Part shown: positions 40,371 through 48,005 of the stretch, in pieces
Numbering within the stretch: position 1 is the stretch's first letter
Layout: every line of letters begins with the position of its first letter
Source: Pseudoxanthomonas sp.
Lineage (GTDB): Bacteria > Pseudomonadota > Gammaproteobacteria > Xanthomonadales > Xanthomonadaceae
Assembly (NCBI RefSeq): GCF_051953815.1
Contig: NZ_JBQCIJ010000046.1
Coordinates: 172,164-236,163 of the forward strand
Direction: 5' to 3'
DNA: 64,000 nt
Position numbers and translations under genes: made by a program
The notes under the pieces: model-generated
Told to the model about the DNA's origin: nothing
Databases searched by the model: none
The model's input: the letters and a program-made list of their open reading frames with translations, nothing else

Positions 40371-40550
40371 TCAATCCGGCGCCTTGGCCGGGACGAACGG
40401 CGATACCGGATCGCTGGCCGGGAAGGTTTCCTCCAGCGCCTCGTCCTGGTTCTCGCTTTCGTGATGCTTGCGCCTGCGTTCCTCGTGCGGTGTTTCGGGC
40501 GCGTCGCGGTTTTCTTCCGGTGCGGGGGGATCCTTGCGGTCGCGGTTCAT
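40371..40550 (-). CDS. 59-aa hydrophilic protein with C-terminal [13 protein letters not shown] motif (not in ORF track)
   Basis: [66 protein letters not shown] 5 nt upstream of the ATG. High GC3. Confidence 0.65.
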
Positions 40551-40634
40551 GGCGGTCTCCAGTGGGAGGACCAGGCCAGTGTGGAACCGCGCCGGTGGTA
40601 CCGGCGTGAACCCGGCGACGTCCCGCGATCGGAT

Positions 40635-40836
40635 TCAGCGCCGGTTGCGATCGCCGGTGCCGAGCGGATCCGGGTAATCGCGTTCGGGATCGCGGCGACC
40701 GGTGCCGCGTGGCACGTCCGGCTGGTCGTGGTCCTTCCAGCGCGCATCGTCGTTGCGCAGGCGATCGGGGGTATGGGCTTTCTGCTGGTCGCCCTGCGGA
40801 TTGCCGCGCGGGGGCGGGGGCGGGTTTGCGCTTCAT
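40635..40836 (-). other. coding-potential segment after the udgX stop; its only ATG is in a different frame (frameshift, indel or read-through candidate)
   Basis: 66 codons in the udgX frame, directly after its TGA, show strong GC3 and a natural hydrophilic sequence (SANPPPPPRGNPQGDQQKAHTPDRLRNDDARWKDHDQPDVPRGTGRRDPERDYPDPLGTGDRNRR*). The ATG at 40836-40834 overlaps the udgX TGA (ATGA) but is in the adjacent frame. It precedes a C/G homopolymer-rich run (aaacccgcccccgcccccgcg). Confidence 0.45.
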
Positions 40837-41513
40837 GGGGCATCTCCGGATGCGGTTGGAGGAACGTCGCCGGCCACCCGCGCGGCGACCTTGCGCAGAT
40901 CGCCGCGCAGGTCGCGCAGGGCCTGTTCGCGCGGCTCGCCCTGCATGCGCAGGATGGCGGAGGGATGCCAACTGGCGATGGCGTCGGTGCGCTCGTCGAG
41001 CGCGCGCCAGCGGCCGCGTTCACGGGTCAGGCGGAAGGCGTTGCCGAACAGCGTCTGCGCGGCCATCGCGCCCAGTGCGACCACCCAGCGCGGACGCAGG
41101 CGCGACAGCTCGGCGGCCAGCCATGGCCGGCACGCCGCCTGTTCGGCGGCGTTGGCGCGCTGGTGCAGGCGTCGCTTGCCGCGTTGGCGGAACTTGAAGT
41201 GCTTCACCGTGTTGGTCAGGTAAACCTCGTCTGCGGCCAGCCCGCATTCCGCGAGCAGCTGGCGCAGCAGCTGCCCGGCCGGCCCCACGAACGGCTCGCC
41301 CTGGCGATCTTCCTGATCGCCGGGCTGTTCGCCGATGAGCATGACCGCGGCCCGCGCGGGACCGGCGCCGAAGACCGTCTGCGTCGCGTCCCGCCACAAC
41401 GGGCATGCCCGGCAATCCGCCGCGCGCAGGCGCAACTGGCGCAGCGTGCCGGCCGGAACGGCCTCCACCGGCTTGGCCAGCGGCACCCGGGGCGGCGCGA
41501 TGGCGCGCGGCAT
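40833..41513 (-). CDS. udgX: family-4 uracil-DNA glycosylase of the UdgX subtype
   Basis: 226 aa. Motif A GEQPG (LIGEQPGDQED), Fe-S Cys (CRACPL ... C...C), UdgX-specific insertion VKHFKFRQRGKRRLHQRA (KRRIH-like loop), motif B HPSAILR. Confidence 0.75.
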   Translation of the reverse strand: MPRAIAPPRVPLAKPVEAVPAGTLRQLRLRAADCRACPLWRDATQTVFGAGPARAAVMLIGEQPGDQEDRQGEPFVGPAGQLLRQLLAECGLAADEVYLTNTVKHFKFRQRGKRRLHQRANAAEQAACRPWLAAELSRLRPRWVVALGAMAAQTLFGNAFRLTRERGRWRALDERTDAIASWHPSAILRMQGEPREQALRDLRGDLRKVAARVAGDVPPTASGDAP

Positions 41514-41542
41514 GGACTCAGCGCGCCGGCCGCGGGCGCGGC

Positions 41543-41941
41543 TCAGGCGTCGGCCAGTTCATGCACCGCGTGCCGGCTGGCCTGCGGAACGGCGACCGCC
41601 GGCGCTTCGCGATGCGGACGCGGCAGCGGCGCCATGGGCGCGACCGGCACGGGCGCGCGCCGGCGTTCGGCCGCCGCCAACACCCGCAGGCGCGCAATCC
41701 GGCTGCGCGCCCAGCGCGCCGACCAGCGCATGCCGGCCGCCACCGAACGCACCGCGACGTTGGCCTGGGGATTGAGCGGGTCGTGCAACTGCACGCTCAC
41801 CAGCCAGCCATCGCGCAACGGATGTATCTCCAGCACGCTGCAGCCATCGAGCAACAGGCGCGCGCCGCTCCATGCGTCGTCGGAGGTGGCTTCCACCCAG
41901 GTGAAGTCCGAAGGAAGCTTCATCGGCACGGCTTTGGTCAT
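41543..41941 (-). CDS. hypothetical protein (132 aa), first gene of the udgX operon
   Basis: MTKAVPMKLPSDFTWVEATSDDAWSGARLLLDGCSVLEIHPLRDGWLVSVQLHDPLNP... SD AGGA 8-11 nt upstream. The start was chosen downstream of the sigma-54 promoter; the ORF is open to 42061. Confidence 0.55.
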   Translation of the reverse strand: MTKAVPMKLPSDFTWVEATSDDAWSGARLLLDGCSVLEIHPLRDGWLVSVQLHDPLNPQANVAVRSVAAGMRWSARWARSRIARLRVLAAAERRRAPVPVAPMAPLPRPHREAPAVAVPQASRHAVHELADA

Positions 41942-45953: not shown

Positions 45954-45968
45954 TGGCACGGACATTGC
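45954..45968 (+). promoter_or_regulatory. sigma-54 promoter TGGCACGGACATTGC (perfect consensus)
   Basis: Exact TGGCAC-N5-TTGC. The -12 element lies 65 nt upstream of the KGG-protein ATG (46033). The palindrome GGAGCGCTCC at 45926-45935 sits just upstream. Confidence 0.8.
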
Positions 45969-46032
45969 GGAGCACGCTGTGGCCGCGGCGTGGTCGCCGC
46001 GCGCCATTTCCTTTCCAACAGAAGGCGACCCC

Positions 46033-46440
46033 ATGTCCCGTTCCCCGTTGTCATTGAGCCCCTCCGCGATGAACGCAAACGCCATGAACGCTTCTTCTTC
46101 ATCCTCCCCCCGCGGTCCGTCTCCCGGCCGCCGTGAACCACGCGGTTTCGCCGCGATGGATCCGGAGCGCCAGCGCGAGATCGCGCGCAAGGGCGGACGC
46201 GCCGCCCACCGGAGCGGAAACGCCCATCAATTCGATTCCGAGGAAGCGCGCGAGGCGGGCCGCAAGGGCGGTGAAGTGGTGAGCCAGGACCGCACGCACA
46301 TGGCGCGGATCGGCGCGCGCGGCGGCGAGGCGCGCGGCGCCAACCGCCGGCAGCAGGCGCAGAGCGGGGACAAGGACGGCGAGGAAGCCGCCGGATCCGA
46401 GCCGGAGGACGCCGGCATGTCCGCGCGACGTCCGCATTGA
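46033..46440 (+). CDS. KGG-repeat general stress protein (YciG/Con-10-like)
   Basis: 135 aa with repeated KGG motifs (IARKGGRAAH, AGRKGGEVV, IGARGGEARG). SD GAAGG. Low-complexity Ser/Asn N-terminus. Confidence 0.8.
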   Translation: MSRSPLSLSPSAMNANAMNASSSSSPRGPSPGRREPRGFAAMDPERQREIARKGGRAAHRSGNAHQFDSEEAREAGRKGGEVVSQDRTHMARIGARGGEARGANRRQQAQSGDKDGEEAAGSEPEDAGMSARRPH

Positions 46441-46474
46441 ATGACCCCCGCGAACGCGCGGAACGCGGCGCCGC

Positions 46475-46687
46475 CTAACTCTCGGGGATGGCGCGCGCCG
46501 CGCGCGGCGACGCATTCGCCCCCGCGCGATCCAGCAGCGCGCCGCACTGGACGACCGCCGCGTCGATGCGATCCAGTCCCGCGCGCGCATCCTCGGCCTG
46601 TCCATCCGCGAGCGCCTGGCGCACGACGGAGTTGGCGTACAGGATCAGGTTGAGTTCGTTGCGCAGTTCATGCTGCCAGTCAGACAT
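46475..46687 (-). CDS. 70-aa stand-alone DHp (HisKA H-box) mini-protein
   Basis: MSDWQHELRNELNLILYANSVVRQALADGQAEDARAGLDRIDAAVVQCGALLDRAG... This is an H-box (HELRN.L..I) plus the second DHp helix, with no sensor and no ATPase domain. The ATG overlaps the 3' end of the activator gene by 8 nt. High GC3. Confidence 0.6.
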   Translation of the reverse strand: MSDWQHELRNELNLILYANSVVRQALADGQAEDARAGLDRIDAAVVQCGALLDRAGANASPRAARAIPES

Positions 46688-48005
46688 GGTCGCGCTTCCG
46701 GGCAAGATGGTTGTGCACGGTGCGCACGCTGATGCCGAGGCTGCGGGCGGTGGCGGTCTTGTCGCCGCCATGGAACGCCAGGGTCTTGCGCAGCATTTCC
46801 GACTCCACCTGGGCGAAGGTCATGCCGACCTGAAAACGCACGCCGGCCGGATCGTCGTCGCCCGCGAGGCCGGTCCGGGAGGACGCCATCGGCAGGGGAC
46901 GCACGCCGTCGTCCTGGCTGCGCAGGTAGGCCAGTTCCACCGCGCTGGCCAGCTCGCGCACGTTGCCGGGCCAGGCGTGCGCCATCAGCGCCGGCAGGCA
47001 GCGCTCCTCCAGCCGCTTGGCCTGGCCGCTGCGCTGGTTGAGCCGGTCGATGAAGGCGTTGACCAGCAACGGGATGTCGGCCCGGCGCGCGCGCAGAGGC
47101 GGCACTTCGATCGGATAGCGCGCCAGGCGGAAGTAGAGATCGGGGCGCAGATCGGCGCAGCCGTTGCCGGAGAAGCGGTGGGTGGCGGCGATCACCCGCA
47201 CATCGATCGGCACCTCGCCCTGGCCGCCGATGCGCTGGACCACGCCGGTCTCCAGCGTGCGCAGCAGATACACCTGCAGGGCCGGCGGCATGTCGCCGAT
47301 CTCGTCGAGGAACAGCGTGCCGCCCTGGGCCTGCTCGAAAAAGCCCAGATGCCGGTTGGCCGCGCCGGTGAAACTGCCGCGTTCGTGGCCGAACAGTTCG
47401 CTGGCCAGCAACTCGGCGGGCAGGGCGCCGCAATTGACCGCGACGAAACGGCCGCCGCGGCCGCTCTGCGCATGCAGGGCGCGCGCGGCCAGTTCCTTGC
47501 CGCTGCCGGTCTCGCCGAACAGCAGCACGCTGACGTCGTGCGGCGCGGCGCGGGCGATTTCGTGGCGCAGCGCGTGCATGGCCGCGGTCTCGCCGAGCAG
47601 GCCATCGGCGCCGTCCTCGCGCCGCGCCGCCTCGCGCGCGTGGTGGGATTGGCGCACGTCGTCGAGCAGTCCCATCAGGCGGACGGGCGGCAGCGGCTTG
47701 GCCAGATAGGCCGAGGCGCTGGACGCCACCGCGCGACGCGCGTGATCGATGTCGCTGCTGCCGCTGACGAACACGATCTGGCCCTGATGCTGCACGGGAA
47801 TGCGGTCGAGCACGTCGAAACCCGTGCCGTCCGGCAGGTTCATGTCGAGCAGAGTCAGATCGGGATCATGATGGGCCAGCCAGGACGCGGCGTCGGCGAC
47901 GCCATGGAAGGCATGCGCGGTGAAGCCGCGGCGCCGGGCCAGGTCCAGGGTCATCGACGCGAACTCGGTGTCATCGTCGACGATGGCAAAGCATGGATTC
48001 GCCAT
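46680..48005 (-). CDS. sigma-54-dependent response regulator (NtrC family: receiver - AAA+ - Fis HTH)
   Basis: 441 aa. Receiver (IVDDD...LLDMNLPDGTG...AKP), Walker A GETGSGKE, sigma-54 contact loop GSFTGA, Walker B LFLDEIG, RPDLYFRL, WPGNVREL, and C-terminal HTH ARSLGISVRTVHNHL. Confidence 0.92.
   Translation of the reverse strand: MANPCFAIVDDDTEFASMTLDLARRRGFTAHAFHGVADAASWLAHHDPDLTLLDMNLPDGTGFDVLDRIPVQHQGQIVFVSGSSDIDHARRAVASSASAYLAKPLPPVRLMGLLDDVRQSHHAREAARREDGADGLLGETAAMHALRHEIARAAPHDVSVLLFGETGSGKELAARALHAQSGRGGRFVAVNCGALPAELLASELFGHERGSFTGAANRHLGFFEQAQGGTLFLDEIGDMPPALQVYLLRTLETGVVQRIGGQGEVPIDVRVIAATHRFSGNGCADLRPDLYFRLARYPIEVPPLRARRADIPLLVNAFIDRLNQRSGQAKRLEERCLPALMAHAWPGNVRELASAVELAYLRSQDDGVRPLPMASSRTGLAGDDDPAGVRFQVGMTFAQVESEMLRKTLAFHGGDKTATARSLGISVRTVHNHLARKRDHV

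Follow-up and report, generated by a model that had tools for sequence, protein, structure and literature searches.

A conserved candidate sigma-54 stress-protection regulon with an adjacent NtrC-family activator in a Pseudoxanthomonas-like bacterium

Gene content of the locus and comparison set

Analysing a 64 kb window (the whole stretch of DNA under study, 69% G+C), we characterized a gene island spanning positions 40371-48005, in which four transcription units fronted by sigma-54-type -24/-12 elements stand beside the gene for an NtrC-family enhancer-binding protein (EBP). Because Pseudoxanthomonas isolates encode proteins 87-88% identical to this EBP, we read the source as a Pseudoxanthomonas-like member of the Lysobacterales/Xanthomonadales. 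EBP orthologs were taken from a protein homology search and their encoding contigs were then fetched, providing six comparison loci whose EBP is 51-87% identical to that of the window (L081-L086, with L081 and L082 as the closest relatives), together with the most distant orthologs at 47-49% identity (L088 and L091). A scan of genome contigs with the EBP (L001-L080) returned paralogs of 32-50% best-segment identity, most of them 35-41%, and no ortholog.

The first unit, on the minus strand, encodes a BON-domain (OsmY-like) protein (44227-45363; Pfam BON, E-value 1e-18), a 185-aa exported protein with a weak DUF4142 match (43603-44160) and a 77-aa Cys-rich protein with a weak Metallothio_Pro match (43301-43534). 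The BON protein includes a long Gly/Arg/Asp/Tyr-rich hydrophilic region, and its match to OsmY is weak and below cutoff. Divergent from this operon, on the plus strand, lie the second unit, encoding a 93-aa lipoprotein (45598-45879) with a signal peptide and the lipobox LAAC, orthologs in L081 and L082 and no family in the Pfam scan, and the third, encoding a KGG-repeat (YciG-like) stress protein (46033-46440; Pfam KGG, E-value 7e-17). The fourth unit returns to the minus strand, starting with a 132-aa hypothetical protein (41543-41942) that has orthologs in L081 and L082 and matched no family in Pfam and NCBIfam scans. It continues with a UdgX-family uracil-DNA binding/glycosylase protein (40833-41513; Pfam UDG; TIGR03914, 261 bits against a cutoff of 190) and ends with two small hydrophilic proteins. 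The original prediction had described this unit as an operon of a hypothetical gene, udgX and a single small-protein gene; the operon stands and the gene count does not, a fourth gene having been overlooked.

The upstream small gene (40635-40836), which shares an ATGA overlap with the udgX stop, is an apparently frameshifted ortholog of a 60-66 aa hydrophilic protein. Judged against the L081 and L082 orthologs, its ATG (40836) lies in one frame and its conserved body (RGNPQGDQQKAH...GDRNRR) in another, with the switch falling in the C-rich run CCCGCCCCCGCCCCCG; this would reflect a pseudogene, a genuine frameshift or an error of sequencing. The downstream gene (40371-40550) encodes a 59-aa hydrophilic protein that belongs to no Pfam or NCBIfam family. 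It is conserved at both ends across loci, highly so at its C-terminus, and is near-identical in L081, L082, L083 (14162-14341) and L085 (20974-21153) despite its changing genomic position. The cargo is of a general-stress type, and the initial description of the gene content was borne out by Pfam and NCBIfam for the KGG, BON, UdgX and short-chain dehydrogenase/reductase (SDR) proteins, the Cys-rich protein having the weak Metallothio_Pro match given above. Rfam and tRNA scans yielded no match.

Sigma-54 promoters

The four -24/-12 elements were found at exactly the positions first reported, all intergenic and correctly oriented: TGGCACGCGCCTTGC before the lipoprotein gene (45545-45559, plus strand), TGGCACGGACATTGC before the KGG gene (45954-45968, plus strand), TGGCATGGCGTTTGC before the BON operon (45452-45438, minus strand) and TGGCATGTGATCTGC, reading TGGCATG-N4-TCTGCT, before the hyp-UdgX operon (41994-41980, minus strand). 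The GG and GC dinucleotides are exactly 10 bp apart in all of them, three being strict matches and the fourth having CTGC at -12. From the -12 GC to the ATG we measured 38 nt for the hypothetical gene (ATG 41942), 39 nt for the lipoprotein gene (ATG 45598), 65 nt for the KGG gene (ATG 46033) and 75 nt for the BON gene (ATG 45363), in agreement with the predicted range of 38-75 nt.

The strict pattern TGGCAY-N5-TTGC occurs three times on both strands of the window for 0.44 expected; as many as three were reached in 2 of 100 shuffles. These three matches fall within 530 bp, in intergenic DNA, and point at genes. The relaxed pattern TGGCAY-N6-TGC, the only one that the hyp-UdgX element matches, is not enriched (5 occurrences for 2.3 expected). 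A matrix that included the four sites scored them at 18.8-26.7 bits, the next best position in the 64 kb being intragenic at 12.0 bits. With an independent matrix built from 10 sites of distant loci only, the BON, KGG, lipoprotein and hyp-UdgX elements reached 21.5, 18.0, 15.9 and 11.1 bits, respectively, for a background of Markov simulations whose per-window maximum averaged 14.6 bits, with a 95th percentile of 18.0. By sequence alone, two sites are therefore significant, the lipoprotein site is borderline and the hyp-UdgX site, with its CTGCT at -12, is not significant. We accepted the latter because it occupies the same position in L081 and L082 and shares the upstream boxes described below. 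Overall, it is conservation that decides the matter, and by comparative criteria these promoters are genuine. The four elements are the only strong sigma-54-like sites of the window.

The matrix scan of the window detected no sigma-54 promoter for the trehalose, MscS and RES genes, and no separate promoter for the DUF4142-like gene. Upstream of the SDR gene the best matrix score was below zero, so that the SDR, initially listed with the cargo as a nearby gene, is not sigma-54-driven in the window; in L084 an SDR gene does sit inside a sigma-54 operon. No consensus sigma-70 promoter was found in the island by a scan covering the housekeeping consensus only, and terminator-like matches in the island were not above background. 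Within the predicted KGG 5' untranslated region, a GC-rich hairpin followed by a T-rich tract (45987-46005, plus strand) is partly conserved in L081 and could form a leader structure.

Conservation of the promoters across related loci

The order EBP, small open reading frame, BON gene is kept in all six loci L081-L086, and in each of them the BON gene is preceded by a TGGCAYG-N4-TTGCG element (in L084, the element precedes an SDR-BON operon). The three other promoters are found in the two closest relatives. The KGG promoter keeps its position in L081 (12065) and L082 (11928), as does the hyp-UdgX promoter (L081 16038, L082 16780), with its boxes 85 bp upstream, and the lipoprotein promoter is strict in L082 (12427) and present as a CGGCAC version in L081 (12494). 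The motif conservation upstream of orthologs that had been proposed as a check on the original prediction is thus observed in six of six loci for the BON element and in the closest two for the rest. An alignment of the BON-lipoprotein intergenic region from the window, L081 and L082 reveals that both -24/-12 elements, one AT-rich block between them and the ribosome-binding site are conserved and that the rest diverges.

Gene order downstream of the BON promoter is also maintained, with the BON and DUF4142-like genes in the same succession in L081 and L082; an ortholog of the 77-aa Cys-rich protein follows the BON gene in L081 and L083 and lies further downstream in L082, with an ADH gene inserted between. 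Elsewhere, such elements front genes for Mn-catalase, Lipoprotein_15 proteins, hemerythrin and several products of no assigned function, and further sigma-54-fronted units of other loci include a metallo-beta-lactamase/His_Phos/Carb_kinase operon and a 200-aa gene followed by LigD. Recurrent neighbours across the loci comprise otsA/otsB, KatE, Ku, LigD, Top1B, DUF4142, DUF892, CsbD, MscS-type channels and RES-domain genes.

Tandem boxes upstream of the promoters

When the 200 bp preceding 22 promoters were searched by unsupervised Gibbs sampling, an AT-rich motif emerged, CGMAAAAWTTC, located mostly 50-90 bp upstream of TGGCA. On inspection this motif corresponds to two 13-bp boxes, yGCA-N5-TkCr, with an AT-rich centre, 5-7 bp between boxes and box centres 18-20 bp apart, the clearest examples being TGCACAAGCTGCA and TGCAATCGCTGCA. 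Measured from TGGCA, a pair most commonly starts 83-86 bp upstream at its left end. The window holds exactly three tandem places, all of them preceding sigma-54 promoters, and between them they cover all four. The pair CGCACAAATTTCA-n5-TGCAGCTTGTTCC (45880-45910) would be the enhancer of the KGG gene, 74 bp upstream of its TGGCA, with a counterpart at 12108-12138 in L081; the pair GGCAGCTTTTGCC-n6-CGAAGTTTGTGCG (45504-45535) would be common to the divergent BON and lipoprotein promoters; and GGAAATTTTTTCC-n7-TGGAAACGCCTGC, read on the minus strand (42047-42079), would serve the hyp-UdgX operon from 85 bp upstream. The 45504-45535 boxes are the invariant block of the three-way alignment. Their geometry is odd: each of the three close relatives has them at 83 bp from the TGGCA of the BON promoter, yet at only 41-51 bp (41 bp in the window) from that of the lipoprotein promoter.

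Over 250 kb (the window and nine loci), 14 of the 17 tandem places stand 41-153 bp upstream of a sigma-54 site, for 0.42 expected. Box matches also pointed to weaker promoters missed by the first pattern (L084 3904 and L085 7660), the pairing recurs in two loci added afterwards, at L090 7708 and 11620, and sigma-54 sites with the same upstream boxes were found near EBP relatives beyond the 51-87% identity set. With a 32-bp matrix trained on distant loci only, position 45506 ranks first among the ~128,000 positions of the window. Promoter and box sequences, their conservation and their co-occurrence can be read directly from the DNA, and the tandem dyad boxes are the likely enhancer and putative EBP binding site. 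The second and third matches of the 32-bp matrix in the window (33782-33813, 16.8 bits, and 14614-14645, 14.7 bits, both on the plus strand) have no strong sigma-54 site nearby.

Two GC-rich palindromes had initially been put forward as activator sites. Both are present, and that role did not hold, as neither is conserved: GGGCGCGC-N4-GCGCGCCC (45458-45477) falls in a diverged stretch of the three-way alignment and the one at 45926-45935 proved different in L081 when the upstream sequences were inspected, making the AT-rich tandem boxes the likelier candidates. An integration host factor site was also considered for the AT-rich motif and rejected on inspection, the boxes not fitting WATCAA-N4-TTR.

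The enhancer-binding protein

The EBP gene (46680-48005, minus strand) encodes an NtrC-family response regulator of REC-AAA+-HTH_8 architecture, with a receiver domain (Pfam Response_reg, E-value 4e-18), an AAA+ domain with the GSFTGA loop (Sigma54_activat, E-value 5e-57, followed by AAA_lid_14) and a C-terminal Fis-type HTH (HTH_8, E-value 1e-7). The GSFTGA/GAFTGA loop and the HTH (SLGISVRTVHNHLAR) are kept across all 10 EBP orthologs, K104 is found in all of them and D55 in nine, the exception being P0088. These domains and residues confirm the intact loop and receiver domain already noted from the sequence, and tblastn over the rest of the window recovered only a receiver-domain match, leaving this protein as the sole sigma-54 EBP of the window, as predicted. 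The gene for sigma-54 itself, rpoN, lies outside the window.

Compared with NCBIfam equivalogs, the EBP scores far below all cutoffs for the 25 best families of 73 matched, for instance 303 bits for NtrC (cutoff 559), 261 for AtoC (714) and 268 for ZraR (760). Because it falls below every named equivalog cutoff, we consider it a distinct, unnamed subfamily. This family was found in Pseudoxanthomonas, S. nitritireducens, Thermomonas, Lysobacter, Luteimonas, Rhodanobacteraceae, Rudaea and Dokdonella. The proposed link between this regulator and the island gains from its synteny with sigma-54-driven BON genes, observed at six of six loci.

Upstream of the EBP gene, an element conserved in the window, L081 and L082 (TTCATGAACATCAA-N6-8-TGCAC, 48094-48119, minus strand) is unlike the tandem-box pattern and could be the EBP's own promoter or operator. 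In L086, a tandem-box pair (9359-9390) lies upstream of a 122-aa receiver-like gene (9477-9845) directly preceding the EBP gene, with no convincing -24/-12 element after it, and could reflect autoregulation via a different promoter type.

A DHp-only mini-protein and candidate kinases

Among the genes missed by the original inventory is one for a 69-aa DHp-only mini-protein (46475-46684, minus strand), whose start overlaps the EBP stop by 8 nt (ATGTCTGA). Its GC content by codon position (0.79/0.49/0.83) is of coding type, and its weak Pfam HisKA match is below cutoff (E-value 0.0099). The family counts 45 clusters, 52-89 aa in length and without exception labelled hypothetical or unnamed. HATPase_c, or any further domain, is absent from all 45, so these proteins do not qualify as histidine kinases. 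The motif H-x-L-R-N is invariant in 25 sequences, with N13, R23, R40, A44 and C48 nearly so, and the best PDB match of the family profile is a histidine-kinase DHp (8u4x, E-value 0.005) covering both helices. The gene is present in every locus with an EBP identity of at least 49%; in L086 its annotated start is too far downstream, the H-box lying in the upstream extension.

In the most distant loci, the same position is occupied by a complete soluble kinase (248-257 aa, H-box AHDLNN and HATPase_c) convergent with the EBP gene (L088 11768-12514 and L091 11394-12167, both minus strand). A profile comparison between the mini-protein and the L088 kinase gave a weak match over 24 columns (E-value 8e-4, probability 25%). 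These features lead us to infer that the mini-protein is a DHp-only module in EBP phospho-signalling, acting perhaps as a phosphotransferase from hybrid kinase to EBP, as a phosphatase or as a kinase inhibitor. A candidate sensor feeding the EBP may be the hybrid histidine kinase encoded at 35079-38009 on the plus strand (GAF-PAS-HisKA-HATPase_c-REC by Pfam), which has the same position in L081 and is not conserved in more distant loci. Sensors vary by locus, with an HWE kinase and a receiver in L085 and L090.

Adjoining genes

The SDR (YghA-like) gene (42200-43282, plus strand) lies between the hyp-UdgX and BON operons. Its product starts with an extension of ~115 aa (42200-42540) that is rich in Lys, Ser and Ala (MKGSAKKSSVKKSAIRKSSVAKD...), probably disordered, and left uncovered by the Pfam match, which begins near residue 120. 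Between the hyp-UdgX enhancer and the SDR start, two blocks are conserved with L081, GAGCACGTGAAGAG (42091-42104, containing CACGTG) and GTGCTTGTTCAG (42138-42150), both on the plus strand, and may represent the SDR's own non-sigma-54 control region.

On the other side, an osmoprotectant cluster (48679-56239) adjoins the island, with an MscS-type channel on the plus strand followed on the minus strand by genes for a GDE/MGH1-like glycosidase, a GT4 glycosyltransferase, OtsA (Glyco_transf_20) and OtsB (Trehalose_PPase); no sigma-54-like site was found in this cluster. A RES-domain (toxin-type) gene (48169-48624, minus strand) lies upstream of the EBP gene, as in L081 (9378-9833) and L082 (6906-7361), with too little space in front of it to encode an Xre-type antitoxin. 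L086 has a RES gene (13382-13966) downstream of the sigma-54-driven BON gene.

Discussion

The best-supported interpretation of the island is a conserved, undescribed sigma-54 stress-protection regulon with a dedicated activator. We consider it probable that the four units (BON, DUF4142-like and Cys-rich proteins; lipoprotein; KGG protein; hypothetical protein, UdgX and two small hydrophilic proteins) are co-regulated, with the adjacent NtrC-family EBP as their activator and stress protection as their likely output. In the proposed mechanism, a sensor kinase, possibly the GAF-PAS hybrid kinase at 35-38 kb, would phosphorylate the EBP receiver at Asp55, the phosphate reaching it directly or through the DHp-only mini-protein. 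The activated EBP would then oligomerise on the tandem 13-bp dyad boxes, ~85-105 bp upstream of the predicted transcription start, and, via DNA looping and ATP hydrolysis, open closed E-sigma54 complexes at the TGGCAYG-N4-TTGCG promoters. The resulting hydrophilic, periplasmic, DNA-repair and redox proteins may confer protection in osmotic, desiccation or stationary-phase stress. Gene order, domain content and promoter motifs were observed as such; dependence on sigma-54 and on this EBP, its binding to the boxes, the signal, the phosphorelay and the physiological role are what we infer from them.

Several observations weigh against this interpretation. The boxes lie only 9-41 bp upstream of the lipoprotein TGGCA, unusually near for DNA looping, and part of the sigma-54 sites in the compared loci have no tandem box at the level of the regular expression. 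The hyp-UdgX promoter scores below the simulated background maximum, and with the distant-locus 32-bp matrix its box site ranks 9th and the KGG site falls outside the top 16. The enrichment of box-promoter pairing (binomial P ~2e-20) is inflated, and cross-validation of the box motif is partial only, since the box pattern was derived from the same loci and the window, L081 and L082 are close relatives. No cognate kinase is conserved across loci. Finally, the EBP family was not among the top protein-search matches from classical Xanthomonas and S. maltophilia; it is therefore probably not a universal RpoS substitute of the order.

Among alternative explanations, the one that survives best, which we hold possible and on balance unlikely, is that the regulon is real and answers a specific cue, such as DNA damage, metal or redox stress, or a defect of the envelope or periplasm. 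In its favour, much of the cargo is exported (BON, lipoproteins, DUF4142-like), further products are metal or redox proteins (Cys-rich protein, hemerythrin, Mn-catalase), and the neighbouring sensors are GAF/PAS or HWE-PAS kinases, typical binders of small ligands, redox cofactors or light. However, the cargo mixes general-stress classes (KGG/YciG-like, OsmY-like BON, hydrophilins, catalase, LigD and UdgX repair), and its surroundings hold genes for trehalose synthesis, Ku, KatE and an MscS-type channel.

The promoters could also be genuine and depend on another EBP whose gene lies elsewhere (NtrC in nitrogen limitation, for example), in which case the neighbouring EBP would regulate something else. 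Our analysis covers a single genomic window, the targets of an EBP can be distant from its gene, and the boxes contain TGCA half-sites that are also present in NtrC sites, whose consensus is TGCACC-N5-GGTGCA. We nevertheless judge this scenario improbable: the adjacency of EBP and BON genes, with a sigma-54 promoter, persists through changes of other neighbours in all six loci with an EBP of 51-87% identity, tandem boxes are also seen next to the 47-49% identical EBP orthologs, strong conservation of the HTH goes along with that of the box, and the box spacing TGCA-N5-TGCA differs from the NtrC dyad. As for the matches being mere chance GG-N10-GC occurrences in a GC-rich genome, the unenriched relaxed pattern and the low-scoring hyp-UdgX site speak for it, yet three strict matches in 530 bp for 0.44 expected in the whole window, the conservation of position and sequence across loci while flanks diverge, and the co-occurring upstream motif make this very hard to credit.

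The activator resembles group I bacterial enhancer-binding proteins (bEBPs) such as NtrC, ZraR, AtoC and GlrR, which have the same REC, AAA+ (GAFTGA-type) and Fis-type HTH domains, act at -24/-12 promoters and use upstream tandem dyad sites at about -85 to -105. The differences are that the predicted targets here are stress-protection genes, instead of nitrogen, zinc or fatty-acid genes, and that the EBP gene overlaps that of a DHp-only mini-protein, instead of standing beside a conventional kinase. The closest parallel to the boxes is the AtoC enhancer of E. coli atoDAEB, made of two adjacent inverted 20-bp sites, GCTATGCAGAAATTTGCACA and GCTATGCAGAAAATTGCGCA, each containing TGCA-N6-TGCA (PMC3118216). 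Both enhancers pair their sites ~two helical turns apart, with TGCA-type ends and an AT-rich centre, upstream of a sigma-54 promoter; here, however, the spacer is N5 instead of N6, the sites are nearer the promoter and the EBP is not an AtoC ortholog. Taken as a whole, the circuit is of the classical bEBP/sigma-54 kind, and what sets it apart is its regulon and its partner, both unusual.

This partner can be compared with Spo0B, ChpT and Sda, which are DHp-fold phosphotransferases or helical-hairpin kinase modulators. The mini-protein, a predicted helical hairpin bearing an H-box histidine, could form a four-helix bundle by dimerising, and it is genetically tied to a response regulator. At 52-89 aa, the family has none of the CA-like domain of Spo0B and ChpT; unlike Sda, it keeps the H-x-L-R-N motif.

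General stress regulons are run by RpoS in E. coli and Pseudomonas, by EcfG-NepR-PhyR in alphaproteobacteria and by SigB in Bacillus, with a cargo of KGG/YciG/GsiB-like and OsmY-like BON proteins, catalases, small hydrophilic proteins and stationary-phase DNA repair. The cargo classes of the island match these regulons, as does its trehalose neighbourhood; the promoters differ, being of the -24/-12 type, used by sigma-54 with an ATP-dependent activator, and not those of an alternative sigma factor of the sigma-70 family. In the literature, the lack of RpoS is documented for Xanthomonas only (PMC13382473), which raises the question of how bacteria of its order mount a general stress response. 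A review of sigma-54 in plant pathogens names FleQ, PilRX and PrpR as the only characterised Xanthomonas EBPs (PMC8657755). In agreement with the earlier view of a previously undescribed regulon, our search of full-text literature, in which subscription papers are thinly covered, yielded no account of a stress regulon under sigma-54/EBP control in Xanthomonadales or Lysobacter.

A more tentative proposal, which we advance with considerable doubt, is that general stress or dormancy in Lysobacterales is run by a sigma-54 phosphorelay, from a (hybrid) kinase through the DHp-only protein to the REC-AAA+ activator and AtoC-like TGCA-N5-TGCA enhancers. Its targets would be hydrophilins, BON and KGG proteins, catalases and non-replicative DNA repair (UdgX, LigD). 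If true, general stress responses in bacteria would gain a third architecture, and a kinase stalk encoded by itself would be given a role for the first time.

More directly, the locus provides a concrete candidate for part of the stress response of the order, with activator, enhancer motif, promoters and cargo defined, in an arrangement whose conservation reaches from Pseudoxanthomonas to Thermomonas and further. Sigma-54 biology would thereby come to include classic general-stress cargo (KGG, OsmY-like, catalase, LigD and UdgX), and the uncharacterised family of DHp-only mini-proteins may represent a minimal phosphotransfer or phosphatase module. Finally, the combined promoter and enhancer signature would allow genome-wide prediction of the regulon in any complete Lysobacterales genome.

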